Part shown: positions 11,602 through 43,067 of the stretch, one piece after another
Layout: every line of letters begins with the position of its first letter
Position numbering within the stretch: the first letter of the stretch is position 1
Sequence record: NC_027381.1
Source of the DNA: Escherichia phage Pollock
Length of the DNA stretch: 64,000 nucleotides
Direction: 5' to 3' (one strand)
Notes under the pieces: model-generated
Seen by the model: the letters and a program-made list of their open reading frames with translations, nothing else
Told to the model about the DNA's origin: nothing
Databases searched by the model: none
Made by a program: the position numbers and the translations under genes

Positions 11602-13044
11602 ATGGCTAAGACTCTTGAAAATGAAGAAAAGAAAGTTCACGTTGCTGACGTTGTTAAACACGGTGAGAAACTGATTCTCCCTGAAAACATGTCTATGTCT
11701 GATGCAATTGATTTGCTGAAGCGTCGTCAGAAGTACGAAGAAGAAGAAGTAATTGTTCGTCGTACTTATAACGTATTCCCATGGGATGGTGCTCATGCAC
11801 TGATGCTGGCTCTGACTGAACGTTATGGTTGGGCTGCTGCTGAAGCAACTCCGGGATTCTTTGGTTCTAACCCTCCGCAAATGCTGGATGTTCAGGTTGG
11901 TTATGGTCAAACCAAGAAAGTACCTTGGGGTCGTTTCTCTTTGCCTCAAGTAGATGGATTTGTTCAGTGCTCTGCACAGAAGAAAGATGGTCGTATTAGC
12001 TTTGAACTAGTTGGTAAAGTTCTGCGTAAAGACGAAAAGACCATCGAACTGCTATTTGATACTGTAGAAAAAACTCTGCGTACTAATTCCATTTATATGG
12101 GTCAGGCTATCAAAATTCGTTTCCGTGATAACGATGGTGAACTGTTGGAAATGCCTGAACCAGAATTTATGGATTTACGTGGTATCAGCCGTAATTCTCT
12201 GGTTTATTCTGATGATGTTCAAAATCTGATTGAAACTAATCTGTTTACTCCGATTGAGCGTGTAGCAGATTGCATCATCAATGAAATTCCAGTTAAACGT
12301 GGTGTACTGCTTGGTGGACCATATGGTACTGGTAAAACTATGGCTGCAACTGTTGCTGCTTCTCTGGCTACCAGCGTTGGTGTTACTTACGTATATGTAC
12401 CTCGTTGTGATGAACTGTCTGATGCAATTCAGTTTGCTAAGCAGTATAGCGATAAAGCGTGTGTAATCTTCTGCGAAGATATTGACCGTGCTGTATCTGG
12501 TGAACGTAGTGTTAAGATGGATGACATCCTGAATATTCTGGATGGTATTGATACTAAAACGTCTCGCATCATCACTGTTCTGACTACTAACCATCTGGAA
12601 AATATTAACCCAGCAATGCTGCGTCCGGGTCGTCTGGATGCAATCATTGATGTTACTCCGCCAGATGCTAAAGCAGTTGAAAAACTGGTACGTCTGTATG
12701 GTCGTGATACCATTGCTGCTGATGCAGACCTGACTCTGGTTGGTGAAGCTCTGGCAGGTACTATCCCTGCGGTAATTGCAGAAGTTGTTAAACGTGCTAA
12801 GTTGCACCAACTTCAGTATCAAGAGCCGGGTACTATGATTAAAGAAATCAGTGGTCAAGCTCTGCTGGATTCTGCTCTGACTATTCAAGCACAGCGTAAG
12901 CTGCTGGAAGAACAGTCTAAACCAAAAGTTAAAGAACCTACCTTTAACGAAACTATTGCTTCTGCCGTTGCTCCTGCAATTGAAGCTGCGGTAAGCAAAG
13001 TTACTAATCAGGTATCTGAACTGCACGAGCGCATCTGCGACTGA
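11602..13044 (+). CDS. classical AAA-family ATPase (FtsH/Cdc48-type AAA domain, no protease domain seen)
   Basis: 480 aa; Walker A LLGGPYGTGKTM; Walker B CVIFCEDIDR; ILDGIDTKTSRIITVLTTNHLENINPAMLRPGRLD; strongly CTG/CGT/GGT-biased codon usage unlike neighbours. Confidence 0.7.
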   Translation: MAKTLENEEKKVHVADVVKHGEKLILPENMSMSDAIDLLKRRQKYEEEEVIVRRTYNVFPWDGAHALMLALTERYGWAAAEATPGFFGSNPPQMLDVQVGYGQTKKVPWGRFSLPQVDGFVQCSAQKKDGRISFELVGKVLRKDEKTIELLFDTVEKTLRTNSIYMGQAIKIRFRDNDGELLEMPEPEFMDLRGISRNSLVYSDDVQNLIETNLFTPIERVADCIINEIPVKRGVLLGGPYGTGKTMAATVAASLATSVGVTYVYVPRCDELSDAIQFAKQYSDKACVIFCEDIDRAVSGERSVKMDDILNILDGIDTKTSRIITVLTTNHLENINPAMLRPGRLDAIIDVTPPDAKAVEKLVRLYGRDTIAADADLTLVGEALAGTIPAVIAEVVKRAKLHQLQYQEPGTMIKEISGQALLDSALTIQAQRKLLEEQSKPKVKEPTFNETIASAVAPAIEAAVSKVTNQVSELHERICD

Positions 13045-16396: not shown

Positions 16397-18323
16397 ACAA
16401 AATCAAAGATATCCAATCGCCATTCTTATTAAACCTCAACAACTAAAGAAGAAAGAGATATTAGAAGCTTATATCAATCCTACTGGAATCAAGCCAAATC
16501 AATTTATTGCATTTGACCTTGAGTACAATGGGAAAAAAGCTCCTGTATCTATGCAGAAAGACTATCTTAAAGTCTTACTACCAGAGCTTTGTAATTTAAG
16601 AACAGAATATATTCTGTGCTGTGATAGTGCATATTTCAAAACCTTAACCAAGCAATCTAAAGCAGAACCTCATTGTGGTTATGTATTGCCTTGTGTCATT
16701 CCTGGTTTTGAACATCTAAATATTATTTTCTGTCCTAATTATGCTCAGATTTTCTATGACCCTTCTGTACAGGATAAAGTTAATCTGGCTCTCAAAGTTC
16801 TAGTAGATAAGGTAAATGGTCAATACCAAGAGATTGGTAAGAACATTATCCATACTGCTTACTATCCTTCTACAGTTGAAGAAATTGAAGCTTGGCTTGA
16901 ATCTCTACATCAATATCCAATTCTAGCTTCAGATATAGAGGCATTTAGTCTTAAATTCTATAAAGCAGGTGTAGGTACTATTGGATTTGCATGGGACCAA
17001 CACAATGGAGGAGCATTCGCTGTTGATTATACGAATGAACCAGACAAGGCTGAAAGAATTAGGCAGGCTCTTAAGAAGTTTTTTGAAACTTATGAAGGCA
17101 AACTGATTTGGCATAACTCAAGTTATGACTTAACAGTGCTTATTTACCAGCTTTGGATGAATGGTTTAGTAGACCAAAAAGGATTGCTTAAGGGTTTGCA
17201 CATCATGTGTCGTAATTTTCACGATACTAAGATTGTGACATATCTGGCTACAAACTCTTGTGCAGGTAATGAGTTAGGGCTAAAAGCTCAAGCTCATGAA
17301 TTTGCAGGAAACTATGCACAAGAAGATATTGATGATATTACTAAAATCCCATTACCAGACCTTCTGGAGTACAACTTAATTGACTGTCTAAGTACTTGGT
17401 ATGTTGCAGACAAACATGCAGATACTATGGTATTGGATGAACAATGGGAAATTTATAATACTCTGATGTTACCTTCGCTGAAGAATATTATTCAGATGCA
17501 ATTAACTGGTATGCCTATTGATATGGCAGAGGTTAAGAAGGTTAAAGCAGAAATGATTAAAGAGCGAGATGGTTATCTTAGAGCCATCAAGTCATTTGCA
17601 GTAGTAGATTTGTTAGTTAACAACCTACGTAAACAACATGTTGCTACTAGAAATGCTACGCTCAAAACCAAGCAAATTACAATGTCTGATGAGGAGACAT
17701 TAGCAATAGAGTTTAATCCAAACTCTAACCCTCAAATGCAGGAACTTTTGTATGAAATTATGGGATTACCTGTAATTGATTTAACTGATTCTAAGCAGCC
17801 TGCTACTGGTGCAGATACTCTAGAAAAGTTAATTCATCATACAGATGATGATAGACAGAAAAAGATTCTTGAATGCCTTATTAAATATTCTAAGGTAGAA
17901 AAAATTCTTTCTGCATTTATACCTGCATTCGAAGAAGCACCTTTAGCTGAAGATGGTACTCATTATTTATTCGGAAGCTATAACTTAGGTGGTACTGTAT
18001 CTGGTCGTTTGAGTTCATCAAAACCAAACATGCAACAAATTCCTTCCTCTAAGAGTCCTTACGCCAAACCTATAAAACGATGTTTTAAAGCTGGTAAAGG
18101 TTGGCTTCTTATTGGATTAGATTTTGCATCTCTTGAAGACCGTATTTCTGCTCTAACAACCAAAGACCCTAATAAATTGAAAGTGTATATGGGGGTGAAT
18201 GTTTATACGGTTACTATAGAGGGGGTTGACCATCATATTCGAGATGACGATACAATCATTTATGATGGTAAAACTTACACTGGTGAAGAGTTCTATGATG
18301 CTTTTACCTGTGGCCTTCTATGA
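16377..18323 (+). CDS. family A DNA polymerase, N-terminal polypeptide (3'-5' exonuclease + pol motif A)
   Basis: 648 aa; exo motifs ASDIEAFSL, YNLIDC; SGRLSSSKPNMQQIP; motif A LDFASLEDRI; homology ends near KVYMG (~18194) then reads ~43 codons into the inserted HNH element. Confidence 0.8.
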   Translation: MRHIIFEQNQRYPIAILIKPQQLKKKEILEAYINPTGIKPNQFIAFDLEYNGKKAPVSMQKDYLKVLLPELCNLRTEYILCCDSAYFKTLTKQSKAEPHCGYVLPCVIPGFEHLNIIFCPNYAQIFYDPSVQDKVNLALKVLVDKVNGQYQEIGKNIIHTAYYPSTVEEIEAWLESLHQYPILASDIEAFSLKFYKAGVGTIGFAWDQHNGGAFAVDYTNEPDKAERIRQALKKFFETYEGKLIWHNSSYDLTVLIYQLWMNGLVDQKGLLKGLHIMCRNFHDTKIVTYLATNSCAGNELGLKAQAHEFAGNYAQEDIDDITKIPLPDLLEYNLIDCLSTWYVADKHADTMVLDEQWEIYNTLMLPSLKNIIQMQLTGMPIDMAEVKKVKAEMIKERDGYLRAIKSFAVVDLLVNNLRKQHVATRNATLKTKQITMSDEETLAIEFNPNSNPQMQELLYEIMGLPVIDLTDSKQPATGADTLEKLIHHTDDDRQKKILECLIKYSKVEKILSAFIPAFEEAPLAEDGTHYLFGSYNLGGTVSGRLSSSKPNMQQIPSSKSPYAKPIKRCFKAGKGWLLIGLDFASLEDRISALTTKDPNKLKVYMGVNVYTVTIEGVDHHIRDDDTIIYDGKTYTGEEFYDAFTCGLL

Positions 18324-18840
18324 ACAACGGTATAAGATTTTTGATGAAGGTTTCATCTTAAATCTTGCAAACAATCAACTCCTAAAACCAATTCTCAATT
18401 CTAATGGATACCTTAAAGTTGGATTAGCTAATGGTGATGGTACTCATCATCAAGAGCTACTTCATATTCTGGTAGCTAAACACTTCATTCTAAATCCTTA
18501 TGGCTACAAACAGGTAAACCATAAAGATGGTAATAAACTGCATTGCCATAAGGACAATCTGGAATTGTGTTCTGCTACTCAGAACGTCAAACATGCATTT
18601 AAAACAGGACTACGCCCCGGTTATATGTCTGCTGATGATAAAGAGAAATATCTCTTTGAGGTACTAGCAGGCAAGCAAGTTAAGGACATTGCTTTTGAAA
18701 TAGGCAGACGTCCTGAAACTCTGCACAAGATGCTTAGAATCACTGCTGACCGACTTGGTATCCGAAATGAATGGGACGATGTTATGAGGAGAAATAGAAA
18801 AGATGTTGCTTTACGACAGCTTGCCAAAATCAACTCATGA
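18226..18840 (+). CDS. HNH homing endonuclease inserted within the DNA polymerase gene
   Basis: 204 aa; HNH core VNHKDGNKLHCHKDNLELCSATQNVKH; different frame from both polymerase parts; true start may be an internal Met (~18295). Confidence 0.7.
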   Translation: MTIIFEMTIQSFMMVKLTLVKSSMMLLPVAFYEQRYKIFDEGFILNLANNQLLKPILNSNGYLKVGLANGDGTHHQELLHILVAKHFILNPYGYKQVNHKDGNKLHCHKDNLELCSATQNVKHAFKTGLRPGYMSADDKEKYLFEVLAGKQVKDIAFEIGRRPETLHKMLRITADRLGIRNEWDDVMRRNRKDVALRQLAKINS

Positions 18841-21307: not shown

Positions 21308-22294
21308 ATGAAGTTAACCAATAACACTAACATCGCATTGTCGATGGCAGTATGGTTAGCTCAAGATGATTATGACTATATTGAAAAACCTAACTACATC
21401 TCTGCTACCAGTCTATTAAAGAGTGTTCGACAGTTAGTTCTAATGAAACGTCTTACAAGCGTTTCTAACGCATCAACTGATGTAGCTGACCGAATCTCTA
21501 ATCGTATGGGTTCTGCCTTTCATGATGCGATTGAAAGAGCGTGGAAGGGTAATTATCAACAGTCTCTTAATGCTCTTGGTTATCCAAAAAGGGTTATTGA
21601 ATCAATTCGTATTAACCCAACTCCTGAAGAGTTAAATGAAGATGTAATTCCTATTTGGTTAGAACAGCGGGTTGAAAAGGAATTCAAAGGATGGATTATC
21701 GGAGGAAAGTTCGACATGGTTATGGAATATCGCTTAAGAGATGTTAAGTCTACTAGCGTATTCACATACATGAACAAATCCAATGATGAAAAATTCCGTA
21801 TACAAGGAAGTATTTATCGTTGGCTCAATCCAGAAAAAATCAAACATGATTACATGTACATAGATTATCTCTTTACTGATTGGTCAGCTAATCAAGCCAA
21901 AAGTAATAAGGATTACCCACAGCAGAAGATTTTAGAATACCCCTTACAGTTGAAATCAGTACATGAAACGGAGCAGTATATTGCCTCCAAACTTGCTGCT
22001 TTGGAGAAGTATAAAGACTCTCCTGAACCAGAGTTACCTGAATGTACAGAAGAAGAGTTATGGCGTGCTAAACCAGTTTATAAGTACTACAAAAATCCTA
22101 ATTCAACGGGACGTAGTACAAAGAACTTTGACAACCTGCACGATGCCAATTTGAGATTAGCTCAGGATGGTGGAGTAGGAATTGTTGTTACAGTTCCGGG
22201 TGAAGTTAAAGCTTGTAAACACTGTCCTGTCTATTCTCTTTGTACACAAAAAGATAGGTATCTGGCATCAGGAGAACTTGTCATTTCAGATTGA
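21308..22294 (+). CDS. PD-(D/E)XK-type nuclease with C-terminal Cys cluster (Cas4/RecB-like exonuclease)
   Basis: 328 aa; GKFDMVMEYRLRDVK (D...E...DxK-like); C-terminal four-Cys cluster PECTEEE ... CKHCPVYSLC. Confidence 0.45.
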   Translation: MKLTNNTNIALSMAVWLAQDDYDYIEKPNYISATSLLKSVRQLVLMKRLTSVSNASTDVADRISNRMGSAFHDAIERAWKGNYQQSLNALGYPKRVIESIRINPTPEELNEDVIPIWLEQRVEKEFKGWIIGGKFDMVMEYRLRDVKSTSVFTYMNKSNDEKFRIQGSIYRWLNPEKIKHDYMYIDYLFTDWSANQAKSNKDYPQQKILEYPLQLKSVHETEQYIASKLAALEKYKDSPEPELPECTEEELWRAKPVYKYYKNPNSTGRSTKNFDNLHDANLRLAQDGGVGIVVTVPGEVKACKHCPVYSLCTQKDRYLASGELVISD

Positions 22295-24465
22295 GGAATC
22301 CAATGTTTGACCTATCATCAGCCACATACCATCCAATCTCAGAAGAGATTGTAGATGTGCTATGTAAAAAAACCCTTAATAGTAATCGCTTGTTCTTTAG
22401 AGTTCAGGTTAGTTACTTTCTGGCTAAGATGGCATCCAGTATGCGTTGTACTCTGGATACATTAGACAGAGGAAAGATTCCTGTTAATGTTTATGCCCTT
22501 AACTTAGCTCCATCAGGTTCAGGTAAAGGGCATTCCACTAATATCATTGAAGGTCAGTTCCTGAATCAATTTAAGGGTACTTTCCTTCAGGATACATTTC
22601 CATATATAGCTAAACAGAATCTTATAGATGTAGCTGCTAAAAGAGCAGGTAAAAATGGTACAGACCCAGCAGATGAACTTGTTAAGGTAGAAAAGGAATT
22701 TGCTAGTACGGGTGCTTTAGCATTTTCGTTTGATAGTGGTACTGTTCCTGCCCTTAAACAATTACGTCATAAGTTACTTTTAGCAGGAATTGGTGCTGCA
22801 TCTTTTGAATGTGATGAGTTAGGTAAAAACTTAATTGCAAACATGGATTTGTTAACAGCTTTTTTAGAGTTGTATGACCAAGGACTTATCAAACAAAAGT
22901 TAACCAAAAATACAGCAGACTCTCAACGAATGGAGGAATTAGAGGGGAAAACCCCAACTAATATGCTTCTGTTTGGTACTCCAAATAGTTTGCTGAATGG
23001 TGGTAAAGAAGAAGATGAATTCTATGCATTGTTAATAGCAGGCTATGCAAGACGTTGTTTATTTGGATATTCTCGTAAAGAGGATTTTCAAAAAGACATG
23101 TCTCCTGAAGAAGTCTTCGATATGCTTACCGATTCTACGTCTAATGCTACTGTAGCTAGACTATCTCAGCATTTTGGTATGTTGGCTGATGTAGCCAAAT
23201 ATAACCAACATATAGCAGTTAACAGAGATGTAAGTATTAAACTTATTGCTTATAAACTTCACTGCGAACAAATAGCTGATAAGCTTCCTGACCATGAAGA
23301 AATTCGTAAAGCTGAATTACGACACCGTTATTTCAAAGCATTGAAGTTAGCAGGCGTATATGCATTTGTAGATGAAACTCCAGAAGTAACTGAAACTCAA
23401 TTACTATCTGCAATTAAATTAGTTGAAGAGTCTGGTGAAGCTTTTAATAAAATTCTCAGTCGTGAGAAGAATTATGTGAAGCTTGCTAATTATATTGCAG
23501 AAATAGGAAAAGAAGTTACTCATGTAGATTTGGTAGAAGACTTACCATTCTATAAAGGGAGTAATGCACAGAAGCAAGAGCTTATGAATTTGGCTATTGC
23601 TTATGGGTATAAGCATCACATTATTATTAAGAAAACATATATTGATGGTATTGAGTTCTTTAAAGGTGAAGCTCTTAAACCAACTGACCTCAATAAACTT
23701 ATTGTTTCTTATAGTAATCATATAGCCTATAACTATCTCTCAGAGACGATATCCTTTAGTAACCTAGAATCCTTATGCAAGATGGAAGACATGCATTGGA
23801 TTAATCATGCATTGGTTAAAGGTGCTAGTGGGGATGGTCACAGAGAAGGTGGAAATATCATTCCTGGTTTTAATGTTATCGTCATTGATGTTGATGGAGG
23901 AACATCTCTGGATGAAGTTAGAGTATTGATGAAAGACTATACGTATATCATCCATACTACTAAACGGCATCAAACAGAAGGATATGGCGATAGATTCAGA
24001 TTAATTATACCTATCAACTATCATCTAAAATTAGATGAGAATGAATTCAAAGAATTTATGTCAAATATCTTTGAATGGCTTCCATTTAAAGTAGATGAAC
24101 AGACTAGTCAACGTGCTCGTAAATGGGCAACACATCCGGGTATTTCATTTTCTAATGAAGGTGAAATCTTAGATGCTTTAGCTTTCATTCCAAAAACCAG
24201 TAAGAATGATGAGCTAAAGAAAACTATGGTTGATTTAGGTAATCTGGATAATCTTGAACGTTGGTTTGCTCAACGTATGGGCAACGGAAACCGAAACAAT
24301 CAACTGCTAAAATTTGCTATGATGCTTGCAGATACTGGTATGAATTATCAAGATATTCTGCATAAGGTAATTGATTTCAATTCTAAATTGAGTAATAGCC
24401 TTCCAGAGATTGAAATCCATAACACTATCATGCGTAGCGTCAGCAAAAAGTTATCAGAAAAATAA
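22291..24465 (+). CDS. large replication-associated protein (possible primase; function uncertain)
   Basis: 724 aa; P-loop-like APSGSGKGHS near N-terminus; acidic NVIVIDVDGG motif in C-terminal half; location between nuclease and ATPase/SSB-like genes. Confidence 0.35.
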   Translation: MRNPMFDLSSATYHPISEEIVDVLCKKTLNSNRLFFRVQVSYFLAKMASSMRCTLDTLDRGKIPVNVYALNLAPSGSGKGHSTNIIEGQFLNQFKGTFLQDTFPYIAKQNLIDVAAKRAGKNGTDPADELVKVEKEFASTGALAFSFDSGTVPALKQLRHKLLLAGIGAASFECDELGKNLIANMDLLTAFLELYDQGLIKQKLTKNTADSQRMEELEGKTPTNMLLFGTPNSLLNGGKEEDEFYALLIAGYARRCLFGYSRKEDFQKDMSPEEVFDMLTDSTSNATVARLSQHFGMLADVAKYNQHIAVNRDVSIKLIAYKLHCEQIADKLPDHEEIRKAELRHRYFKALKLAGVYAFVDETPEVTETQLLSAIKLVEESGEAFNKILSREKNYVKLANYIAEIGKEVTHVDLVEDLPFYKGSNAQKQELMNLAIAYGYKHHIIIKKTYIDGIEFFKGEALKPTDLNKLIVSYSNHIAYNYLSETISFSNLESLCKMEDMHWINHALVKGASGDGHREGGNIIPGFNVIVIDVDGGTSLDEVRVLMKDYTYIIHTTKRHQTEGYGDRFRLIIPINYHLKLDENEFKEFMSNIFEWLPFKVDEQTSQRARKWATHPGISFSNEGEILDALAFIPKTSKNDELKKTMVDLGNLDNLERWFAQRMGNGNRNNQLLKFAMMLADTGMNYQDILHKVIDFNSKLSNSLPEIEIHNTIMRSVSKKLSEK

Positions 24466-24504: not shown

Positions 24505-25233
24505 ATGTCAGAACCAATTAAAGATTTGGTATTGATTGCAGGTGCATCCTCTTCAGGTAAATCATCTTCATTGATGAATTTGCCAGACCATCCGGGAGTG
24601 ATGTATTTAAACTGTGAATCAGGTAAACGTCTGCCATTTCCAAACAAGTTTGATAAATATGTAATCACTGACCCACTTCAAGTATACGAAGCATTTGATG
24701 CTGCTGAACAGATGCCTCATATTCATACCATTGTTGTAGATTCACTTACATTCTTGATGGATATGTTTGAATCTCTTTATGTAGTTGGTTCTACCAATAC
24801 CATGAAGGGATGGGCAGATTATAACCAATATTTTAAAAACTTGATGCAGGATAAAGTAGCTAAGTCTACTAAACGTGTAATTTTCACTGCTCATACTCTA
24901 TCTCAATTAAATGAGAATGAGATGATTATTGAAACTAAAATTCCGATTAAAGGTGCTTTAAAGAACCAAGGAATTGAAGCGTATTTTACCTGCATTGTTT
25001 ATGCCAAGAAGATGCAGCTTAAGCATCTGAAACCATATGAAAATGACTTATTAGTCATTACTCCTGAAGAGGAAATTCTTGGCTATAAGCATGTATTTCA
25101 AACATGTATCACTAAAGATACTGTGCATGAACGTATTCGTTCTCCACGCTTTATGTGGAAGATGAATGAAAGTTTCATTGATAATGATGTAACTAAAGTA
25201 TTGGACCGTATTAAAGAATTCTACGAAGAGTAA
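24505..25233 (+). CDS. P-loop ATPase (RecA-like core; possible Sak4-type recombination ATPase)
   Basis: 242 aa; Walker A IAGASSSGKSS; Walker B-like IHTIVVDSLT. Confidence 0.4.
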   Translation: MSEPIKDLVLIAGASSSGKSSSLMNLPDHPGVMYLNCESGKRLPFPNKFDKYVITDPLQVYEAFDAAEQMPHIHTIVVDSLTFLMDMFESLYVVGSTNTMKGWADYNQYFKNLMQDKVAKSTKRVIFTAHTLSQLNENEMIIETKIPIKGALKNQGIEAYFTCIVYAKKMQLKHLKPYENDLLVITPEEEILGYKHVFQTCITKDTVHERIRSPRFMWKMNESFIDNDVTKVLDRIKEFYEE

Positions 25234-25242
25234 GGAATAAAT

Positions 25243-25983
25243 ATGTCTCTGTTAAAAAATCTGGAAACTAAAGCTGGTGTTGAAGGTGAAAAGGATACCC
25301 TAGGTGGAGGTGGTGTACTTGACTCTGGTCTGTATGACCTGATTGTAAAAGTAGCTTATATCTCTGCTTCTAGTGGTGGTGCTTTAGCTCTAAATACTAT
25401 CTTTGATTATGATGGTAAAGAAGTACGTCAGCAGTTCTGGATGACTTCTGGCAATGATAAAGGCAATAAGAACACCTATATCGGTAAAGATAATAAAGAA
25501 CATTATCTACCGGGTTTCTTAGCTGCTAATAGTTTGGCTCTTTTGACTGTTGGTAAAGAAATTAGCCAACTGGAATTGGAAGAGAAAACTATCAAGCTGT
25601 ATGACTATGAGGCTAAAGCTGAAGTACCTACTAAGGTACAGGTATTTGTTGAATTAACTGGTCAAAAAATTACTGCTGGTATTCAGAAACAGACCGTTGA
25701 TAAGAACATTGATTCTGGTCAGGTTGACGGTAATGGTAGAAAAATTTATGTAGCATCTGGTGAAACTCGTGATATTAACGAAGTAGTTAAATTCTTCCGT
25801 CACGATGATGGTTTGACTGTACCTGAAATTGAAGCTGGTAAAACTGAGGCTCAATTTAAAAATGATTGGGATGCTAAATTTACTGGTAAAACCATCAATA
25901 AAGCTAAAGGCTCTAAGGATGGTGTAACAGCAGGTGCTCCATCAGCAACAGCAAAACCAACTAAATCCCTATTTGCTAAATAA
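25243..25983 (+). CDS. abundant DNA-metabolism protein, candidate single-stranded DNA-binding protein
   Basis: 246 aa; highly biased codon usage; position just upstream of the late block; C-terminal tail KPTKSLFAK shared with ORF 26637..27068. Confidence 0.35.
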   Translation: MSLLKNLETKAGVEGEKDTLGGGGVLDSGLYDLIVKVAYISASSGGALALNTIFDYDGKEVRQQFWMTSGNDKGNKNTYIGKDNKEHYLPGFLAANSLALLTVGKEISQLELEEKTIKLYDYEAKAEVPTKVQVFVELTGQKITAGIQKQTVDKNIDSGQVDGNGRKIYVASGETRDINEVVKFFRHDDGLTVPEIEAGKTEAQFKNDWDAKFTGKTINKAKGSKDGVTAGAPSATAKPTKSLFAK

Positions 25984-25989
25984 AAAAGA

Positions 25990-26012
25990 AGCCCTCTACG
26001 GAGGGCTTTTTA
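25990..26012 (+). terminator. rho-independent terminator
   Basis: gccctc-tacg-gagggc followed by ttttt. Confidence 0.6.
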
Positions 26013-26024
26013 ATAGGTATTTTT

Positions 26025-26258
26025 ATGACAATCAAAGTAAGAATGTTCCAAAATGTCTCTGGTACAGCTTATCAGAAAGTGTCATATAAAATCATTCAAG
26101 GGATTATAGAAAATCCTAATGATAAAGAAATTGATGTTCTTCTTACTGGTTGGGAACATGCTAGTTCTAAATCAGTAATGAGAACTAAAATTTTACAACA
26201 ACTAGAGTGGTTTAAGTCTCAAGGGTACACTGTCATTTTTAATAATGAGAGACTTTAA
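26025..26258 (+). CDS. hypothetical protein
   Basis: 77-aa ORF. Confidence 0.35.
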   Translation: MTIKVRMFQNVSGTAYQKVSYKIIQGIIENPNDKEIDVLLTGWEHASSKSVMRTKILQQLEWFKSQGYTVIFNNERL

Positions 26259-26260
26259 TC

Positions 26261-26644
26261 ATGTATAAACTTATTGCCCCTCTTCGAGTACACAAATCTA
26301 AAAATAAGTTATTTAGTCTCAATTTGAATGCATACAGGAATGAGAATAGATTTGCTTTGGACAATGCCAAAGTTAATTTTAAAAAGGTTATGGAAGAACA
26401 AATTAGTGAGTTACCTGAGTTCACTAAAGTTCATATTACATATGTCTTTTATCCTGGAACCAAACATTTAAGTGATATTGGTAATGCGTGCTCGATAGTT
26501 GATAAGTTTTTTGCAGATGCTTTAGTTGAACTAGGGAAACTCCCAGATGACAATTATCTTTATATTCCTGAATTGGTTTTTCGGTTTGGGGCTGTAGACC
26601 AAAAAAATCCACGAGTAGAAATCTTTATTAAGGAAATTGAATAA
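26261..26644 (+). CDS. RusA-like Holliday junction resolvase (tentative)
   Basis: 127 aa; LSDIGNACSIVDKFFADALVELGKLPDDNYL resembles RusA D-x-D-N...D-A-L...DD pattern as recalled. Confidence 0.4.
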   Translation: MYKLIAPLRVHKSKNKLFSLNLNAYRNENRFALDNAKVNFKKVMEEQISELPEFTKVHITYVFYPGTKHLSDIGNACSIVDKFFADALVELGKLPDDNYLYIPELVFRFGAVDQKNPRVEIFIKEIE

Positions 26645-27068
26645 TATGCAAATTACTCTGAACCAAGATGAAATTCTTGAAGCTCTGAAGAACTATGCTT
26701 TCTCTGTTATCAACGTAGCTCCGGGTAATGATATTACTATCGACCTGAAAGCTGGTCGTGGTGAGAACGGATATTCTGCTACTTTAGAAATTACTCCTCA
26801 ACGTAAAGAAGTAAAAACTTCCAACGTACATACAGGTTCTACTGAAAATACTGTAGGACTTCGTACAGAAGTTGTAGAACGTACTGTTGAATCTGATAAA
26901 AGAGTTATGCATGAAGTAACTCCAGAACTTCCAGTAGAAGGAGTAGACATTATAGATACTGAAGCTAAAGACCCTGCTGCAGACATGACTGAAGAAGAAG
27001 TTGATGCAGAAGTAGATGCATTTATGGCTACCCAGAATCCAACTAAATCACTCTTCGCTCGTAATTAA
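26637..27068 (+). CDS. hypothetical acidic protein with C-terminal PTKSLFA tail
   Basis: 143 aa; biased codon usage; ends NPTKSLFARN, matching the C-terminus of ORF 25243..25983. Confidence 0.4.
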   Translation: MNNMQITLNQDEILEALKNYAFSVINVAPGNDITIDLKAGRGENGYSATLEITPQRKEVKTSNVHTGSTENTVGLRTEVVERTVESDKRVMHEVTPELPVEGVDIIDTEAKDPAADMTEEEVDAEVDAFMATQNPTKSLFARN

Positions 27069-27081
27069 TTAAGGAGCTAAA

Positions 27082-27231
27082 ATGAAAGCACTTAAAGCTG
27101 CTTTCATTACTGCTCTCATAGTAGGGGTCTTTTTTACATGGCCCCTAGTATTAACAGTAGCTGTGATAGCAGGATTATTTTGGTTTATCTATATGGCTCT
27201 GATTCAAACAGAAGAGGAAGAAGATAATTGA
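27082..27231 (+). CDS. small membrane protein (49 aa)
   Basis: AAGGAG RBS then ATG; single hydrophobic helix; acidic C-terminus EEEEDN; not in ORF track (<60 aa). Confidence 0.3.
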   Translation: MKALKAAFITALIVGVFFTWPLVLTVAVIAGLFWFIYMALIQTEEEEDN

Positions 27232-27458
27232 TTGTTTGGATTGTAATTGGATTAATTGTAGTCATTTGTCGTCTATCAATTTTTAGACAAAATGACCCAA
27301 AAGTAAAGAAAACTATGAGGAATGTTAAAATAGCCTTTGAAGATGAAAGACTTTATTGGGCTATCATTACTCCTTCTTTAATATTTTGGAGCATTATACT
27401 AGCTATATTTTGGCCTGTTGTAGTGTATACAAGATTTTTCTACAAACAGAAAAAATAA
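27228..27458 (+). CDS. small membrane protein
   Basis: 76 aa; two hydrophobic segments. Confidence 0.3.
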   Translation: MIVWIVIGLIVVICRLSIFRQNDPKVKKTMRNVKIAFEDERLYWAIITPSLIFWSIILAIFWPVVVYTRFFYKQKK

Positions 27459-27489: not shown

Positions 27490-30400
27490 TTAGTACAGAC
27501 TTACTAAAGGATGGATAGTAAATCCATTTAGTGCTGTACCCATTCCAACGTTATAACTTAAGCTACCTGTTGCTAAGTTTGCTTCCATGATATTAGGTAA
27601 TCCAGATTCAGCAGTATTACCAAACATAAGGAATAATGCTCTTAATGGGTTTTCCCTAATCGTTCTTAAGATAATTTTCTGAATACGAATCTTATAGTTT
27701 AAGAACCATGTTAAACCAATAGCATCCAAATAGAATCTGGTGCGACTAGGTAATATGTCATAGTTCACAAACTCATCCATTACTCTATTCAATGCACTAT
27801 CTTTATCCATTGGATTACGAGAACGAGTAGTTAAATGCTTATATAGAGAGTATTTAGCAACGAAGTCACCATACTGAATTGAACGATTCAATAAGAAGTA
27901 CACATTACTATCTCTAGATAAAGTGATTTCTTTAGCAACACGTTTAACACTATCTGGAATACCAGAAGTGTACTCATCCATTTTAGTAAGTAGTTTATCC
28001 TTCAAAGAGTAATCATCCTGCTGACCTAAATCTTCTGCGATAGTTGGTAACAAACCAGCTTTAATTAAATCAGCTACTGGGTTACGAGCTTGAGAATCTT
28101 TAAGTTCAGATATTTTTCTCTGATACTCTTCAGCCATTCTTGGATTATGGTTTACAGCCAGATAATGAGAATACTCGTTAATTAATTTCTCATTTCTTCT
28201 GTACTCCTCAGCAGCCAGTACAGCAGTAGACATATCTTTAGCCATAGTAATTGGGCTAATACCTACCGTAGCCAAATGTACCATGTTAGATAAGATATTC
28301 CCTGCGGATACAACTACTGAACGAACTACAATCCAGTCCTTCATTTCCTTCACAAATTCCATCAAACCACGTTCACCAAGTCTTAGATAGCGTGCAGCAT
28401 TCTTACCTAAGAATGTTTCTGCAATGTTTACAAATGCTTTCTGAAACTCTTTAGAGAAATTGGTTTGACCAGTCCATAGATTCAGTACAGAAGGTTCACG
28501 ATAACCAAATGCATTATTCAGTAAATCCTTACGTACTTTAATTTTCCCATTAGGCCAAATACGTTTGGCTGCTTCTTTCATCTCAATAGGCATCAGTTCA
28601 TAGATTTCTTTTAACTGATGGTCTGTAGAGTTTTCATCTATAGTGATGTATTGATATGCTTTTCCTTCTCTAGCATCCTTCTTATAGATTTCACCAAGTC
28701 TTTCTAAAAGCATCTCATTGTATTTGGCAGCCTGAATCTCTTCAGCAATACGACCTTCCCAAGCAGCTAATACTTTAGTGAAGTCATTATCTACATTTAA
28801 TTGAGCTTCTCTATTAGCTCTTGGCATTTGGTACGAGTATCCCATTATTGAACCAGCGCGGTTTAAAACAGGCTGCATCTGTCCATCATAGTTCTGAGGC
28901 ATTGGTTTAGAAGCATCAAATAAATCATTGATAGCAGCTTGTTTATTAGCTGATACCTTGTTCTTTTCTGATGTCTTCCATGCACCCGGGGTCATAGAAC
29001 CATTAACACTTCTGCCTGTAATTGGGTTTACTCCACCTACGGTGCTTTGCAGGGTACTCATTACACCAGCAATCCAACGAGGTTCACCACCATTGTTAGA
29101 ATGGTAGTAGTACATTGGAGTTTTATCTGTATCTGCTGGGTCACGTTTAACTTGAGCACCTCTGGTATAGCCTCTACGAGATAAGCTTGGTTCATCCTTA
29201 ATGGATGCAATAATTACTTTTTTGTTTGGGTCAGTGATAGTAGGAGTAAATCCTTTAACTGCTGCCAAAGAATAGTTATTACCAGATTTAGCTAACTCAG
29301 CGCCTTTAAGGCTTTCATAGTATTTGAGAGTAAAAGTCATACCATTATTATCTGGTTCACCTTTAGTCATCTCTCTACTGATTACATTACTTACTGTTTC
29401 TTTATCTGCTTGAGATAATTCAGTAAGAGCACTCAATGAAGCCAAGGTATCAATTAACTGAGTAGCTATTTCAACAGCATCATTTGATGGTCTTTCTCTA
29501 CCAGTACCAATCAAACGTGCAATAGCAGCAGCATTTGATAATTGGTATGCCAGTGGAGATACTCCATGCACCATCTGTTTAGCTAAACCATGAGCAGATT
29601 TAATATAGAATGCAGAGTTTTGAGCACCTGCTTTTTGTAACTGAGATTCTATTAAATCTATCTCTTTAGCTAACTCATTTGGATTAGTTAATAATTCATT
29701 TAAACGAACCAAGTCATACCCATTAGCAAACAGGTATGCCATATCTGTATTGGCAACTACTCTCTGAATAGCCTCTTTCTCATTTTGGTTTAAAGAAACA
29801 AACGTTTTTTCAATCATACCCGGAACCATCTCACGAATAATCTGACGTGCTCTATCAGCAGCCATATTTTTCTGAGTTAATAAGGTATGAATACTACTGT
29901 TGGTTTCATTAGAACCAATAAATTCATTAATGAGTTCAGCGATAGTACCTAGTTTTCCATCCTGATGAATGGTCATATAAATGTGAGTTATAGCCTCACG
30001 TACATCATGAGCATCTTGTTCATTAAATACTGCTGCTCCAACAGTAATACCAAATGCTACAGACTTAGGTACTTTCTTCTCTACTTTGCTTAACTGCTTA
30101 CGAATAGAGTTACCAAAAGCTCTCAACCTATCTTGAGTAGCTTCAGTGATTTCTTCTGTACCTCTACCAATTCTGGTAAAGAGATTATCTCTTGCCTGAC
30201 TATCTACATGACTAATGTTCTTAGCCAGTTTAGATAAACGAGAAGCAATATTTGTATCTCTTAAAGATTTAGTAGCTAAGCCAGATAACCAAGTAAGAAT
30301 CATATTAGTTAAATCACCAATACGTTCTCTAAGAGATGTAGCCTGATTCTGTCTGGTACGTTTAACACTAATTTGAGACAGCTTATTTCTTAATTGTTCA

Positions 30401-33400
30401 TTGGTTTCAGCCAATGCAATAAAGTTAGCAAGTCTGTTAGTACGACCAGTAGCATCAGTAGTAATAGCTGTATTGCCAAATACTGCATCATATCTTTGTT
30501 TAGCTAATGCCATTTCATTAGCAGAACGATTGTTAGGGTCAGTTAAGAAATCTTCTACTTTTAAGTTTTCTCTGGCTTGCGAGTACAAACTACGTGCAAC
30601 CAGAACACTTGGAGAAAAGTTCTCTAACCCATATTTCATAGATACTTGCAGCATCTTGAATACAAATGCTTCTTTCTCACTCATGTTAAAACCATGAGCA
30701 ATTAATGCATTTGGTGAGTCATCAATTTCTGGGTCAATGCTATCTACCAAAAGTTTATCTTGGTAATGCTCTAAACCAGATATTTGCTGACCAGTATTTT
30801 TAATTACTTTAATGATATTGGATTGTAAGTAATCCAGAGTATCTGTTAGATGATTTACATGTTCCTGAGATGCTTTACCTGCATCCAATTTATTAAATAA
30901 TGTTTCTGCATCTAATCTATTAATGTTGTTAGCATTTTGCTGAGCATAGCTTGTTGTATCTCTGGATTTAACAGGATTGGTAGCATCAGCCAAAGCAACG
31001 GTATGGCCTAACAAACGAGTCCAGTAAGAAGTAATGTCTGGATTAGAGCCAATAGCAAACAGACGTTTAATAGATTCAGCTAATTGCTTAAGTACCTTTG
31101 TTACAGTTCCTGTAATAGTTTTTTTAGTCATTGCATCAATCATCCTTGGGTTAACAAGACCCCATGCAATGAATTCAGCAGTAGCCTGAGCCATATCACC
31201 AGAAGCAATATGATTATTAATCAAGTCTACAACACTATCTGTTTCAGGATTCGTACTAGAATACTCATTAACAAATTTAGTCATGAGTGCTTCTATTGAA
31301 GCAATCTCTACTTTTTGAGCAGGAGTTAATGCTTCTGGATTACTGTAATAATTGTGAACAGCATTAGCAGTAGCAGCATGAATTAACTCATGCATTACAG
31401 TCTCAATAGACTGAGAACCAATATAGATATTCTGTCCCTGTGTAAGCCCTAAGAATGAGTTATTAAACTCAACCTTAGTATCAGGTGTCATTTCCTGTTG
31501 AACGGCTGAGAGAGCTTCTGGAGAGCCTACATACACATTAATATCTTCAGGAATAGAGTTAGCAATCTTATCTAATACGAAGCTAGTAATTCTATTTTGA
31601 CGAGAAGGTAAAGATTTAGCTGCTTCTTTAATAGCAGCAATCACATCACCTTTAGACAGTACTTTAATTCCATCATGTCCTGATACATTTCTTCCATTTT
31701 TAGCCAATGCTTCAATCATTTGACGAGTAGGAGGAATAGTTACTCTACCTTTAGGGAGAGATACTGATTCCATAGTAGGAAGTTCTGTATTAGCAATTAA
31801 CTGTTCTAAAGGAGTTCTGGTATCAATTGCTTCTTTATCAGTCTGCTTACCATTCTGAACATTGAATGGAATATTAGCCCCGGTCATTTGGTTAATAGAA
31901 GTAACTGCTTCTCCTCCTAATAAACCTTGTTTAATAGCAGTTTGAGTAGCAGCTTCTTTTTTAAGAAGTGTAGTAAATGCTTCTAACACTTCTGGGCTAG
32001 TAGGTGAATTGGTTTCATCTGCTCCAATCATTTCCATAATTCCACGGAAAGATTGTTCCAAACGTGTATCTGCATCTGGACCTAATTCTTCAGTTAGATT
32101 TACTCCTTCCATCGCTTGCTCAAAACGATTAGTAAAATCTTGAAGTAAATCAAATTCATTCCAACTTTGCAGAACACCTTGGTTAATAGCTTGAGAACCA
32201 GTATCTAAATGAGCTACAGCATTAATATAACCATCAAATACGTTAAGGGCATTGTTAGGGTTAATATCACGAGCAATAGCCTGCATAGCTGCTTCTACAG
32301 ATTGAACCAATAAAGGCATTACACGAGTACCTGGTTCAGTATAAGTAGGAGTATCTACACCAAAAGTAGCACGACGCATTTTACCATCCAGATTTCTACG
32401 TCCTCTGGATTCCATACGATAAATATCAAATGTGACTCTACCTTCTTCACTCAGAAGAATACCTTCATTTAATTTAGCTGCATCAGTATTACCAGCAGTA
32501 AACCAAGAGTTAAAGATAGGCATCTGAGTAATCAGTTCTCTCTTAATCTCGTTATATTGCTGCTGAGAAAGAGATTCATACTTAGATAATTTACCTGCTT
32601 CTCTAAGTTCTTTTTCTTTAGCTTCTACTACTTTATTCCAACGAGACATGAATACTTCATGCATTACAGCAGCAGCATAAACCATCATCTTGCCGCGATT
32701 GATTACAGTACCAAATTCATTAGCAATTGATTCATTTACTGCTGCACCAATACCAATTTTGATGTTTTGGGTAATTGCTTCAATCTGCTCGCTAGTAAAC
32801 TCAAATTTAGTTACATCTTTTCCTAAATTGATAGGAGCACCAATTTTTACCCAAGAACCATTACGAAATACTTGAGCAGTAGTTAATTCATTAGTTGTAT
32901 TGGTCAAATCATTAATATGAGCAATTGCAGCATCTCTATCTTCCTGATTAGTAGCTGAATCTACTGCTCTTAATGCTTCTGTGATTGCTTCGTAATAACC
33001 ATTAGCAATACCCATAGCAATCTTTCTATTGATTGCATTAGCACCACCAGAATAAACAGTAACTGTTACTGGATTTTTAAGTAATCCTCGACCTATTTGG
33101 ATTGGATGTTCTACATCCTCTCCTTCAACAATATTTACATCACCAATTAGTTTTGATGCAGCAAGAGTTACCCTTACCTGATTTTTCAAGCGTTCAATAT
33201 CTCTCATCTCTTTTTGTTGGAATTGTCGAGATTTATTTTTAAGGGCAGCTAACCTGTTAGGGATATTACTGTAAGCATCCATCATGTTGTTGATGTATTG
33301 CTGTGAGCCAGCAGCAGCAGTTTTATACAGGTCTAAGAATCCCGGTTCTTCAGCAGCATCATTGTATAGACGGTCTGATTGCCCATAGAACAAACCACCT

Positions 33401-36400
33401 TTCTCTAACTTATTCAGTAAATCTTGGTTCACGTCTTTTAAACCAAGCTGAACAATAGAGTTAAATGGTCCATTAGTTACACCATCAAGCTCCAGCATCA
33501 CATGAGTCTGGAATGAGGATTTACCTTGTTCTACTGCTAATTCATATTGAGCTTGTGCATATAAAGCATGGAGTGTTTTAGTTTTCTCCTTACCTGCTTT
33601 TACAGCTTCTAAAAGAACCTCTGCATCAGCATCACTAATTGAATCTTGGTTTTCAGCAGCTTTTAGAATATTGATAGCATCTCTAAATAAACCAGTACTG
33701 ATAGCTTTATTTAGCTTATCTCTGGCAGTCTCAGAAGAGAGTTTATCAACAGCAATATCCAATCCTTGAGCAATAGCATAATCAAGAAATGCACCATGTT
33801 GAGGATTGTTGAGTTCAATAGTAGAAGGTTCAACAGTAATTAATTCACGATGTAATTTAGCTGACTGAGGGTTTAAATCCCCTGAGTTAAGCATCATACG
33901 GAAGTTACTAATTACGTTATATGCAAAATAAATAGGTGTATTAGCCAGAGGTAATCCAGCTTCTGACATACGAGTTAAACCGTTAATCAGAGTATTAATA
34001 TCTCTTTCAATAGTACGGTTAGAACCTTGAATGGATTTCAGATGAGCACCATTAGCATTCTCTTCTGATTGAATGCCTAACATTCTACCAATCCATTCTG
34101 TACCTAATTTATCCAGCATAAGGTCATGAAGACCCATGTTGATATAATGAGGTTGTTTACTGGCTTTGTTACGTGCAGCAAGCATCTTTTCAGGAATATC
34201 CTGACCACCACCATTTTTAACTTTAGTGCTCTGACCTTTTGGTGGAGTACCAAAGTATGCTCCTGCTTTTTCTCTCTGAGGATTAGTTAATTGACCTAAG
34301 AGGTCATTGGAATCCTTCATTAAGTCTACTAAACGTTTAGCAGCTTCAGATTCTTCATTCATACGAATGAATATACGAGAGTTTTTAATGTTGGATTCAT
34401 TTACTTTAGTAGAACCAACAGCAGCTAATTCACTGTTTTTAACAACAGATTCTTGAACCAGATTAGCATTAATCATTACGTTCAATACTTCAGTTGCTAG
34501 TGCTTTAGATACAGCATCACGAACAGAGATAGGAGTATTAGGGTCAGCATTAATACCTAAGATTCCAAAAATCTCTCTGCTTAAATAATCAATAACATTT
34601 TGCCGGTCTGTACCTACATTACGTAATAAATCTGTTTGCTCTACAGTAGGTTTAGTTTTGTTATCTAAACCAAGAATATCCATTACTGTACGGTCATCAT
34701 TGAATGTAGTTTCAACTGCATTACGTACAAACCACTGCATCATACCAGCAGTCATTGCTTCAATTACTGGCTGAGGTAAGAAGTAAACATTTTCACCATT
34801 GATATTTCTTACTTCACTAAAATATTCGACAGGGTATGTTTCCCAGAAGATACGTTGACCTTCAGGAGTTAATTTACCCCAAGATTGAATTAACGATTGT
34901 TCAATAGCAGGGACTAAACCAGCAAATTGACGTAGTACTTTTACTTCTTTCTCTGTTACTTGTTCTGGTTTAATAAATCCTTTAAACAGATTTTGAATCT
35001 GAGTAATAGGATTAGAACCATTGGTAAAAATGTTATTAAGTCTTCCAGAGAAATTAGAAGTTCTCAGGAATGCAGAACGTTTACCTGTAGGTTTAAACCA
35101 TTTTTTAACTTGGTTAGTAGCCTGATAGTTCTTATCTGCTTCTGAAGTAGATTTAGCATCAGAACGTACAGTTTCTGATTGCAGACTACTCAGAATATCG
35201 AAATTAACACCTTTATCTAAACCAAGTTCTAATTGAGACTCATCCATTAAATCAGTCTCAACTTCAGTTGGTTTTTCCTGAATCTGAATTTCAGATTCAA
35301 CTACATCTGGTTTCTCAAATAGTTCTCCTTGAACTGGAGTACTAGTAGGAGCTTCTGTAACAGCTTCTGGCTGTGTTTCTACAGTCTCAGAAGGTGTTTG
35401 TACCTGTTCTTCAGAAACCTGTGCAGAAGCCTCTATAGGAGCTTCTGATTCTTGAGTTGAGACTAATTCCTCTGTAGCAACTGGAGCAGATTGTGCTGGC
35501 ACAGATACAGGTTTACCATCTACTAATTGACTAGTAATGGTATGTGCTTGACGAACAGCATTAGCATCATTACGAATTTCTTTGATTAATCCTTTAGAAC
35601 GTACCGGATGATACGTCATAGGATTTCCATCTAAAGATAAATATGGTTGTCCTGTAGTTGGATTAATTACTTCTACAGGTTGATTACCAGTAAAGTTTTG
35701 AGCAGCCTGTTCAAATGCATTAGCTTTAGTTTCCATGTGCTCTGCAAAACGGTTTAAATGGTCTAATAAACCTTGAGCACGAGCAGTATCCCCTAAAGAT
35801 AATGCACGGAAGATACCTTGCTGATACTGTTGAATACCAATAAATCCATCAGAACCTTTACGTACATCTTCTCCTACTTGGCTCATTGCTTTACCAGTAG
35901 CAGAGATAATTTTTAATTTATCTACATCCTGCTGGTTCAAACCAATGGTTTCTGCTGAATTAACTAAACGGTCAGCAACTTCTGGAGTAATAGAAGATGC
36001 ATCTAAATTCATTTGAGCCAGAACAGATTTAATGTTCTTTTGTACTTCAGGAGATTTATAAGTTTCTGGAGTAATTTCAGAAGGTAAAGACTCCATAATC
36101 TTATTCATTTCTTCTGGAGTCAGTCTGAAGCTTTCAGCAGTAGTTTTAACTGCTTGTACATCAGGATGGTTCAGCACAGCATTGATATTATCAATAGCTG
36201 TTTGATACTGAGCTTTCTCTTCTTCTGGTGCAACTTCCATCTGTGCTTGAATTTGAGGTAAAGCTTCCTCATAAGCAGAGATAACATTATTACCTACAAC
36301 AGCTAAATCTCTACGAGAAGCTTCATCCAAATTACGTTCTTTAATTGCACGGGAAATTCTCAAAATAGAATCTGGAGAACTAATTTCCTCTTCAGGAATA

Positions 36401-42445: not shown

Positions 42446-43067
42446 CCGCTACCTTTTTGGTAAATGCATCAACTGCACTTGTATCAAATCCTGTAGGTAG
42501 AGGAGTGCCATCATCAACCGTCTTACGAGTAATCCAAGTATCAGCAATTATCTTCAGAGCTTTCTGTTCAGCATCTCGTAAGAAACCTTCTTTCTGCTGT
42601 TTATATAAAGCTACCTGAGCACCAATAATTCCTGTTACTGAAGTACCATCAACTGTATCAGATATTTGAGCTATCTCAGTTTTAACCTTTTGAGCAATAA
42701 GGTCAGCATTAAGCTGTTGAAGTTCAATTTGTTTATCTAACAATTGAAGTTCTTTATCTGCTTTCTCAAGTTCTTTATCTGCTAATTCAATTTGTTTATT
42801 AGCCAGATTAATTTGAGATTCAACTAAAAGGTTATTGAGATAGGTCTTATCCTTTTCAATAAGAAAAGTGACAGCTTGAGCTAGTACTGCTGTTAACTGG
42901 CCTAAATATACTTCTGCATATTGAGTACCAGTAATTCTGTCTTTATCCCACTGGTTATCTAGATGAGCATTGGCTGCTGACATCAACTCATCAAAGATAC
43001 CAGAACCACCAACTACCTTAGTAGTTAGGTCTTCATTTGTAATTGGATTGATAACAACAGCCATCAT
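42423..43067 (-). CDS. coiled-coil protein (hypothetical)
   Basis: 214 aa; heptad-like LxxKxxE repeats. Confidence 0.4.
   Translation of the reverse strand: MMAVVINPITNEDLTTKVVGGSGIFDELMSAANAHLDNQWDKDRITGTQYAEVYLGQLTAVLAQAVTFLIEKDKTYLNNLLVESQINLANKQIELADKELEKADKELQLLDKQIELQQLNADLIAQKVKTEIAQISDTVDGTSVTGIIGAQVALYKQQKEGFLRDAEQKALKIIADTWITRKTVDDGTPLPTGFDTSAVDAFTKKVADGVSVTY

Follow-up and report, generated by a model that had tools for sequence, protein, structure and literature searches.

Two neighboring genes of an N4-like phage encode the same C-terminal peptide

The DNA analyzed here, a 64,000-nucleotide stretch of Escherichia phage Pollock (NC_027381.1; hereafter the window), is a genome of the N4-like type (Schitoviridae). 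On its plus strand lie a gene for an SSB (single-stranded DNA-binding protein; 25243-25983, 246 amino acids) and, a short distance downstream, a gene for a 140-amino-acid protein (26646-27068). Both products carry the peptide PTKSLFA close to their C-termini. The first-pass annotation of this DNA had drawn attention to the shared tail, and both copies can be read directly from the sequence: the SSB, with its copy at 25957-25977, ends in ...ATAKPTKSLFAK, and the downstream protein, with its copy at 27039-27059 (including S135 and F137, with R139 two residues past F137), ends in ...ATQNPTKSLFARN. The two copies have 11 nucleotides of DNA in common (CCAACTAAATC), after which three of the next four codons differ synonymously (tcc/tca, cta/ctc, ttt/ttc, gct/gct). 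Because of these synonymous differences, we attribute the sharing to conservation at the protein level, as the annotation had proposed, and rule out a recent gene conversion or a DNA repeat. One detail of the annotation needs correction. It had started the second gene at a TTG codon at 26637; the start is the ATG at 26646, because the N-terminus that it specifies, MQITLNQDEI, is conserved in most of the homologues examined.

The order of genes around this pair parallels the replication module gp43-gp50 of N4. A DNA primase (N4 gp43 homologue; 22291-24465, +; phrog_2135, E 0) and a Sak4-like/RecA-like ATPase (N4 gp44 homologue; 24505-25233, +; phrog_124, E 5e-47; Pfam AAA_24), the latter a candidate partner discussed below, precede the SSB (phrog_743, E 4e-75). 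Next come a 77-amino-acid open reading frame (ORF; 26025-26258, +; phrog_20544), a RusA-like Holliday-junction resolvase (26261-26644, +; phrog_1682, E 2e-39; phrog_34, E 1e-10) and the 140-amino-acid protein (phrog_27655, E 6e-82). The conserved succession of primase, Sak4-like protein, SSB and then a virion RNA polymerase on the opposite strand holds in the window. This polymerase (27490-38103, −; 3537 amino acids, assigned by synteny with N4 gp50) is the first gene of the leftward block, and two small ORFs alone (27082-27231 and 27228-27458, both +; the 49-amino-acid one looks membrane-spanning) intervene before it, so that both tail-bearing genes indeed lie just upstream of the late block. 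The 140-amino-acid protein is 100% identical to CPT_Pollock56 of phage Pollock, and the DNA of the window has 80-85% identity to that of Salmonella phages FSL SP-058/076 and Klebsiella phage Pylas.

Both genes also show the strong CTG/CGT/GGT codon bias that had been ascribed to them: among 64 genes ranked by usage of these codons, the SSB is 3rd and the 140-amino-acid protein 8th. The major head protein ranks 2nd, and the RusA-like gene that lies between the two ranks 63rd. Going by codon usage, the SSB and the 140-amino-acid protein look abundant, and RusA looks far less expressed.

A shared 7-mer alone is weak evidence of a relationship, because others occur in the window: three 7-mers are common to different proteins of its called proteome, compared with 0.47 in shuffled versions, and of these one belongs to an HNH motif and another has the look of a random match. 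For a 7-mer to fall within the last 12 residues of both proteins, our own arithmetic puts chance at ~2.5e-4 (2485 pairs x 36 positions x ~0.06^7). What settles whether the shared tail is real is its conservation in homologues.

The motif is kept in both protein families

A search for loci that started from a single SSB sequence reached 19 loci, and the family profile of the 140-amino-acid protein, which we refer to as gp47-like for reasons given below, was then used to reach further. Conservation of the tail, the check named beforehand, came out clearly: even very distant relatives in either family retain an S-[L/I/M]-F core. The dipeptide [LIVM]F lies within the last 20 residues in 119 of 120 SSB homologues and in 229 of 236 gp47-like proteins. 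Among 35 unique SSB tails, all have Ser at position −2 from the Phe and all contain S-[L/M]-F, with the consensus K-P-T-[S/K/T]-S-[L/M]-F-x-[K/R] and the Phe 1-3 residues from the end. Among 163 unique gp47-like tails, all are anchored by the Phe, 160 have I or L at −1, and 151 have Ser at −2; here, the consensus is [K/R/G]-S-[I/L]-F-[S/A/N]-[K/F], and the Phe lies 1-14 residues from the end. A second, internal copy of the motif is present in 14 of 120 gp47-like proteins. Judged by these internal copies and by its variable distance from the C-terminus, the motif behaves as a modular peptide.

The same picture emerged when we searched with the N-domain of the gp47-like family only. This profile retrieved 2870 representative clusters (50% identity) at E ≤1e-3, and 108 of 116 newly retrieved 50%-identity representatives keep the motif in their last 16 residues.

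The two tails occur together. In 36 of 36 distinct combinations of SSB and gp47 tails, the motif is on both proteins, and this includes divergent or fused forms (loci L010, L018 and L019). Across 60 loci, the tail pattern fits 89 of 886 called genes, and 81 of these 89 encode an SSB or a gp47-like protein. The other eight comprise one divergent gp47-like ORF, two fusions of RusA with gp47 and five apparent chance matches; beyond the fusions and the divergent ORF, no third tail-bearing family was found among these 886 genes. Within a genome, the two tails resemble each other a little more than in shuffled pairs (3.56 vs 3.25 identities; 207 of 10,000 shuffles reach 3.56, with kinship ignored). 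For example, SLFS ends both tails in locus L012 and in Pseudomonas phage Ab09, whose SSB ends in ...KPASLFS and whose gp47-like protein, Bes2, ends in ...TGGSLFS, and an Asp follows the Phe in both tails of L018 and L019.

The SSB tail corresponds to the activating region of N4SSB

The ORF at 25243-25983 is, by homology, an N4 gp45-type single-stranded DNA-binding protein, and single-stranded DNA binding is predicted for it. It matches phrog_743 over its full length (E 4e-75; residues 1-246 against 1-245 of 246) and has 40% identity to N4 gp45, with 33 invariant columns in the SSB family alignment. Comparison of the SSB family profile with chains of the Protein Data Bank (PDB) returned noise only. 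Pfam likewise gave no significant family for the SSB, the RusA-like gene (none at E ≤0.01), the gp47-like protein or N4 gp46, and families were assigned through PHROGs. In the AlphaFold2 (AF2) monomer model, the C-terminal linker and tail (residues 225-246; 25915-25980) are predicted to be disordered, with a predicted local distance difference test score (pLDDT) below 50. The linker is rich in Gly, Ala and Pro and differs in length across homologues. S242 and F244 in the tail are invariant in the family alignment, and the tail as a whole, KPTKSLFAK, is net basic.

The SSB of N4 (N4SSB) has the C-terminus AAKSLFGKK (K259-S260-L-F-G-K264-K265), with which the tail in the window aligns residue for residue (KSLFAK against KSLFGKK). 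In this alignment, S242 corresponds to S260, and K246, two residues past the Phe, corresponds to K264. The invariant Ser of the motif is thereby placed at S260 of N4SSB. In the gp47-like protein, S135 stands at the S260 position and R139 at the K264 position, followed by N140. The match is incomplete at the very end: N4SSB has two terminal lysines (K264 and K265), whereas the window SSB has one only (K246) and many homologues have none.

These residues matter in N4. As the work of Miller et al. (1997) is summarized in PMC2784036, S260, K264 and K265 constitute part or all of the activating region for transcriptional activation. N4SSB activates sigma70 RNA polymerase at late promoters and contacts the beta-prime subunit's C-terminal region; its C-terminal residues are essential for late activation, and its capacity to bind single-stranded DNA is not required for it (PMC4496689). 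N4SSB is also needed for replication and recombination (PMC2784036). Activation of late promoters is known for N4SSB only, and homology suggests it for the SSB in the window.

The first-pass annotation had compared the shared tail with the C-terminal peptides by which SSB-type proteins recruit partners. For the SSB, a partner-recruiting tail is borne out by the alignment with N4SSB and by the contact of the latter with beta-prime. The resemblance to the classical case goes no further than layout. Bacterial SSBs (E. coli ...DDDIPF) likewise have an OB-fold core that a disordered linker connects to a short, conserved tip, which serves as a protein-interaction hub, but their tip is acidic with the Phe as last residue, whereas the tip here is basic, has the Phe 1-3 residues from the end and lacks sequence similarity to theirs. 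KPTKSLFAK is thus not a canonical acidic tip of the DDDIPF type, and the partner documented for N4SSB is host RNA polymerase rather than a DNA polymerase. The membership of the window SSB in the gp45 family and the correspondence of its tail to the N4SSB activating region are the already known part of our account.

The second protein belongs to the gp47/Bes2 family

From profile comparisons, the 140-amino-acid protein is a homologue of N4 gp47 and is homologous to Bes2 (gp61) of Pseudomonas phage Ab09. N4 gp47, once corrected for its reading frame, matches the hidden Markov model of the gp47-like family at 3e-22, and profile-profile alignment (hhalign) of the Ab09 gp61 family with the gp47-like family scored 95.3% (E 2e-8, with ~21% identity over the aligned N-domain). 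The conserved N-domain in the window (residues 1-52, MQITLNQDEI...AGRGENG; 26646-26801) is predicted by the AF2 monomer to form a helix (residues 7-21) and a hairpin (29-36/43-50) with pLDDT 73-84. A search of the family profile against PDB chains, with E values up to 10, yielded no solved structure like this domain. There follows a low-confidence linker (26802-27038; pLDDT 46-61 for residues 51-110), which varies freely in length and sequence among homologues and is acidic near its end, where a predicted acidic helix (110-129, modeled as H110-113 and H116-129) precedes the tip. In the family alignment, F137 of the tip is invariant and S135 nearly so. In the models, both proteins consist of a folded domain, a flexible linker and a tip, the layout expected of a docking peptide.

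The frame correction concerns the N4 reference record. In NC_008720 (positions 8040-8115 of locus L001), gp47 is 1 nucleotide shorter than in close relatives, within an A-rich run. The annotated product ends in ...KPNLLCLQV, and the other reading frame gives ...EEAKEPVQAKPSLFAGLKR. In phage PMBT57, of the same species as N4, gp47 ends exactly in ...EEAKEPVQAKPSLFAGLKR (positions 101-544 of locus L061). A sequencing error, or else a mutation of the laboratory strain with loss of the tail, would explain the 1-nucleotide deletion in the N4 record.

Bes2 received its name in a preprint of June 2026, together with the RuvC-like Bes1 (Ab09 gp60; bioRxiv 10.64898/2026.06.04.730250). According to that preprint, Bes1 or Bes2 alone restores resistance to type I and type II Thoeris and to the type II-A cyclic oligonucleotide-based antiphage signaling system (CBASS), and no binding or cleavage of 3',3'-cyclic GMP-AMP (3',3'-cGAMP) or histidine-ADP-ribose (His-ADPR) was found in vitro. 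Bes2 is described there as a protein without a recognizable fold and without a reported mechanism, its tail is not mentioned in the passages retrieved by term search, and the authors propose that Bes proteins may work via phage development rather than as inhibitors per se. Bes2 and N4 gp47 resemble the gp47-like protein in the window in their homologous N-domain, their position after a resolvase gene, their disordered body and their SLF-type end. They differ in that the resolvase beside Bes2 is RuvC-like (Bes1) and the one beside the gp47-like gene in the window is RusA-like. Protection against Thoeris and CBASS is known for Ab09 gp61 only, to which the window protein is related by sequence.

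gp47-like genes accompany Holliday-junction resolvases

In 34 of 40 distinct contexts, the gene that immediately precedes the gp47-like gene encodes a resolvase. In three of the six others, the resolvase gene is one gene further upstream, past an inserted HNH gene or small ORF (L005, L045/L046). More generally, where no resolvase is adjacent, the gene directly upstream is an inserted HNH endonuclease, a small winged-helix ORF or the SSB; in L005 and L017, the inserts between resolvase and gp47-like gene are HNH homing endonucleases. Three PHROG resolvase families share the slot: a RusA-like one, the RuvC-like phrog_159 (N4 gp46 and Bes1) and phrog_1770, which has a weaker match to phrog_159. 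The RusA-like gene in the window thus holds the slot of N4 gp46 and Ab09 Bes1, both of which are RuvC-like.

In the window, the RusA stop codon (TAA, 26642-26644) lies 1 nucleotide before the ATG of the gp47-like gene at 26646. In other phages, the two genes are fused exactly at this Met; here, they stand at opposite extremes of codon bias (63rd and 8th of 64). In-frame fusions of RusA with a gp47-like protein occur in L018 (5079-6125), in L019 (3901-4830) and in 5 of the top 150 representatives, and several PHROG families labeled 'RusA' match the length of the fused protein. Because resolvase families swap beside a constant gp47-like neighbor and because the fusion recurs, the gene arrangements indicate that the gp47-like protein is functionally tied to the resolvase.

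The fusions in L018 and L019 have two further features, an AT-hook-like basic stretch in the linker (e.g. KKRGRGGRPPGSKNKPK) and extra internal LF motifs (DLF and NLF) besides the C-terminal SIF.

A published Ab09 deletion appears to replace the SSB tail with that of Bes2

The Bes preprint describes a viable, Cas3-generated mutant, Ab09 delta-gp57-61, that lacks 51 bp of the SSB 3' end through most of gp61, given as 'positions 41,096-42,899' (bioRxiv 10.64898/2026.06.04.730250). In the Ab09 record (HG962375; locus L060), a 7-bp repeat, CCGGCAG, starts at 41096 and again at 42899 (locus positions 4097-4103 and 5900-5906), and both copies begin on a codon boundary of the gene in which they lie. 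Deletion from one copy to the other takes out 1803 bp and joins an SSB that lacks its final 16 residues to the 16 C-terminal residues of Bes2, SLFS among them. The predicted chimera keeps the length of the SSB and ends in ...GRPAPAAKQAAPASTGGSLFS. Judging from the published coordinates, the delta-gp57-61 deletion appears to have arisen through microhomology and to have joined the Bes2 tail in frame to the SSB, rather than simply truncating the SSB. If this reading is correct, the two tails would be interchangeable in vivo.

The shared tail as a probable docking peptide

In view of the conservation described above, the two tails are likely to be copies of one short linear docking motif. Both tails probably bind one partner, given the identity of the motif, the weak co-variation within genomes and the apparent tail swap in Ab09. 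The sole partner with experimental support, from N4SSB, is RNA polymerase beta-prime, and we tentatively put it forward as a possible common partner of the two proteins. The SSB tail would then be the region that touches the C-terminal part of host beta-prime and, as in N4, turns on late transcription. The gp47/Bes2 protein, abundant and otherwise unrelated to the SSB, would offer the same peptide and could reach the docking site of the SSB tail. There, it might compete or cooperate with the SSB, or bring itself and a fused resolvase to the site. By competing or cooperating, gp47/Bes2 would tune the replication-coupled switch to late genes. Such a role would suggest a way to the Bes2 phenotype, since what type II Thoeris responds to in Ab09 is the tail fiber, a late protein (bioRxiv 10.64898/2026.06.04.730250). 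A bolder version strikes us as unlikely: in each N4-like phage, the Bes2/gp47 protein, abundant and mostly disordered, would mimic the SSB tail at beta-prime or at another single hub, tune the late switch or tether a resolvase there, and by that possible mechanism blunt Thoeris and CBASS.

Several observations weigh against beta-prime as the common partner or against parts of the argument that leads to it. It is hard to see why a resolvase should be brought to RNA polymerase, and a replisome or recombination hub suits the RusA fusions better. K264 and K265 are absent in many lineages, where many SSBs end in ...SLFG, ...SLFS or ...SLFED. The co-variation of tails within genomes is weak and was computed with kinship ignored. 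Taken literally, the published Ab09 coordinates give a deletion of 1804 bp and a frameshift, and the junction proposed here derives from coordinates in the preprint. The AF2 models are monomers and are silent on partners. Finally, the N4 reference gp47 has lost its tail by the 1-nucleotide deletion, and Ab09 lacking gp60-61 is viable (bioRxiv 10.64898/2026.06.04.730250), so the second tail would seem dispensable in the laboratory.

Some of these points favor a common partner in replication or recombination, be it the phage DNA polymerase, the Sak4/RecA-like gp44, the primase or the core of a neighboring SSB in a cooperativity contact, an alternative that we regard as somewhat doubtful. The gp47-like tail would then deliver its protein and the resolvase to SSB-coated forks or junctions, and the beta-prime contact would be a secondary use in the N4 lineage. 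The module lies among primase, Sak4-like, SSB and resolvase genes, RusA::gp47-like fusions recur, and N4SSB itself is needed for replication and recombination (PMC2784036). Moreover, the motif is found throughout these phages, however different their hosts, and K264/K265 are not. Phage T7, in which gp2.5 and gp4 each act on the DNA polymerase through a C-terminal tail, sets a precedent. However, the literature that we found documents no such partner for the C-terminus of N4SSB. An SSB core as partner is disfavored by the AF2 monomer model, in which the tail is not folded back onto the SSB core (pLDDT <50), and a simple 1:1 adaptor for the resolvase is a poor fit to a gp47-like codon bias far above that of RusA.

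A quite improbable alternative takes the tail for a degenerate form of the motif that binds the beta sliding clamp of the host (consensus QL[SD]LF); the SSB, a resolvase adaptor and late transcription would then all be linked to the clamp, in the manner of T4 with its gp45 and of Mu with MuC. The last three positions of the consensus correspond to S-L-F. The MuC and Mor proteins of phage Mu offer a precedent, with an [S/D]-L-F core at disordered termini that is sometimes duplicated, as in MuC, and a link between late transcription and replication; Mor works with DLF alone of the consensus (PMC12867686). In T4, too, gp43, gp33 and gp55 have interchangeable clamp-binding C-termini in common (PMC2988020). 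Yet the first two consensus positions are unmatched here: none of the 35 unique SSB tails has Gln at position 1, and position 2 is not hydrophobic (the tails have T/A/R/S/K/G at −4 and S/K/T/A/N at −3). We therefore reject a true beta-clamp-binding motif. The activation by N4SSB has been ascribed to direct interaction with beta-prime (PMC4496689), and we found no evidence for involvement of a clamp in N4-like phages.

Least probable is that the tails are independent lookalikes without a shared partner, such as a degradation tag or a solubility or DNA-contact element: the motif is short, another apparently random 7-mer is shared in the window proteome, and identity beyond the S-[L/I]-F core is lineage-specific, but the motif is near-universal in two unrelated families and always together in the same genome, its Ser is functionally important in N4SSB (as reported in PMC2784036), and a C-terminal degradation tag, dependent on the terminal carboxylate, is ruled out by a motif that lies 1-14 residues from the end and has internal second copies.

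Parallels in other phages

A shared docking peptide, with beta-prime or another hub as its partner, would have its closest parallels in logic in the C-termini of T4 gp43, gp33 and gp55 and in the tails of T7 gp2.5 and gp4; chemistry and probable hub differ. In T7, gp2.5 (the SSB) and gp4 (the helicase-primase) both use C-terminal tails on the phage DNA polymerase. The T7 tails, strongly acidic, have Phe at the very end, and the tails here are basic. N4-like phages are not known to encode a sliding clamp. In T4, as here, unrelated proteins of one phage carry C-terminal peptides of the same type; these are highly similar and interchangeable, sit on flexible linkers, converge at a single hub and link late transcription with replication (PMC2988020). 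Unlike the basic tail described here, they are hydrophobic and acidic, and what they bind is the sliding clamp that T4 itself encodes.

The searchable literature yielded no report of tail sharing between the two families, of a family-wide motif, of its duplication or of the RusA fusion, and the sharing of a tail between the SSB and gp47/Bes2 families appears to be unreported. It would turn the activating region of N4SSB, three residues in one phage, into a family-wide linear motif, and it gives Bes2 a first mechanistic handle, namely a tail like that of the SSB and a link to resolvases that includes fusions. If the proposed docking holds true, N4-like phages would provide a third case, after T4 and T7, in which unrelated phage proteins use one C-terminal peptide on a hub that couples replication to late expression.

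Other features of the window

Directly 3' of the SSB stop codon lies a GC-rich hairpin with T-runs (25989-26008) that looks terminator-like; the scan called it for the minus strand alone. The Bes preprint describes the slot between SSB and resolvase as a hotspot for anti-defense genes in N4-like phages (Acb4, Tad2, Sequestin and others; bioRxiv 10.64898/2026.06.04.730250). Given its place in this slot, the 77-amino-acid ORF at 26025-26258 could be a candidate immune antagonist.

The two other 7-mers shared within the window proteome concern different genes. NHKDGNK is common to two HNH homing-endonuclease genes (7533-8093 and 18226-18840, both +), which are probably paralogous mobile elements of the early/middle region. 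EDRDAAI is internal to the virion RNA polymerase (27490-38103, −) and to a 706-amino-acid late protein (46389-48509, −), and looks like a chance match. The strongest CTG/CGT/GGT bias in the window, 0.84, belongs to a 480-amino-acid protein (11602-13044, +; phrog_10440) with weak ATPase-like matches, and this bias, above that of the major head protein, suggests very high expression.

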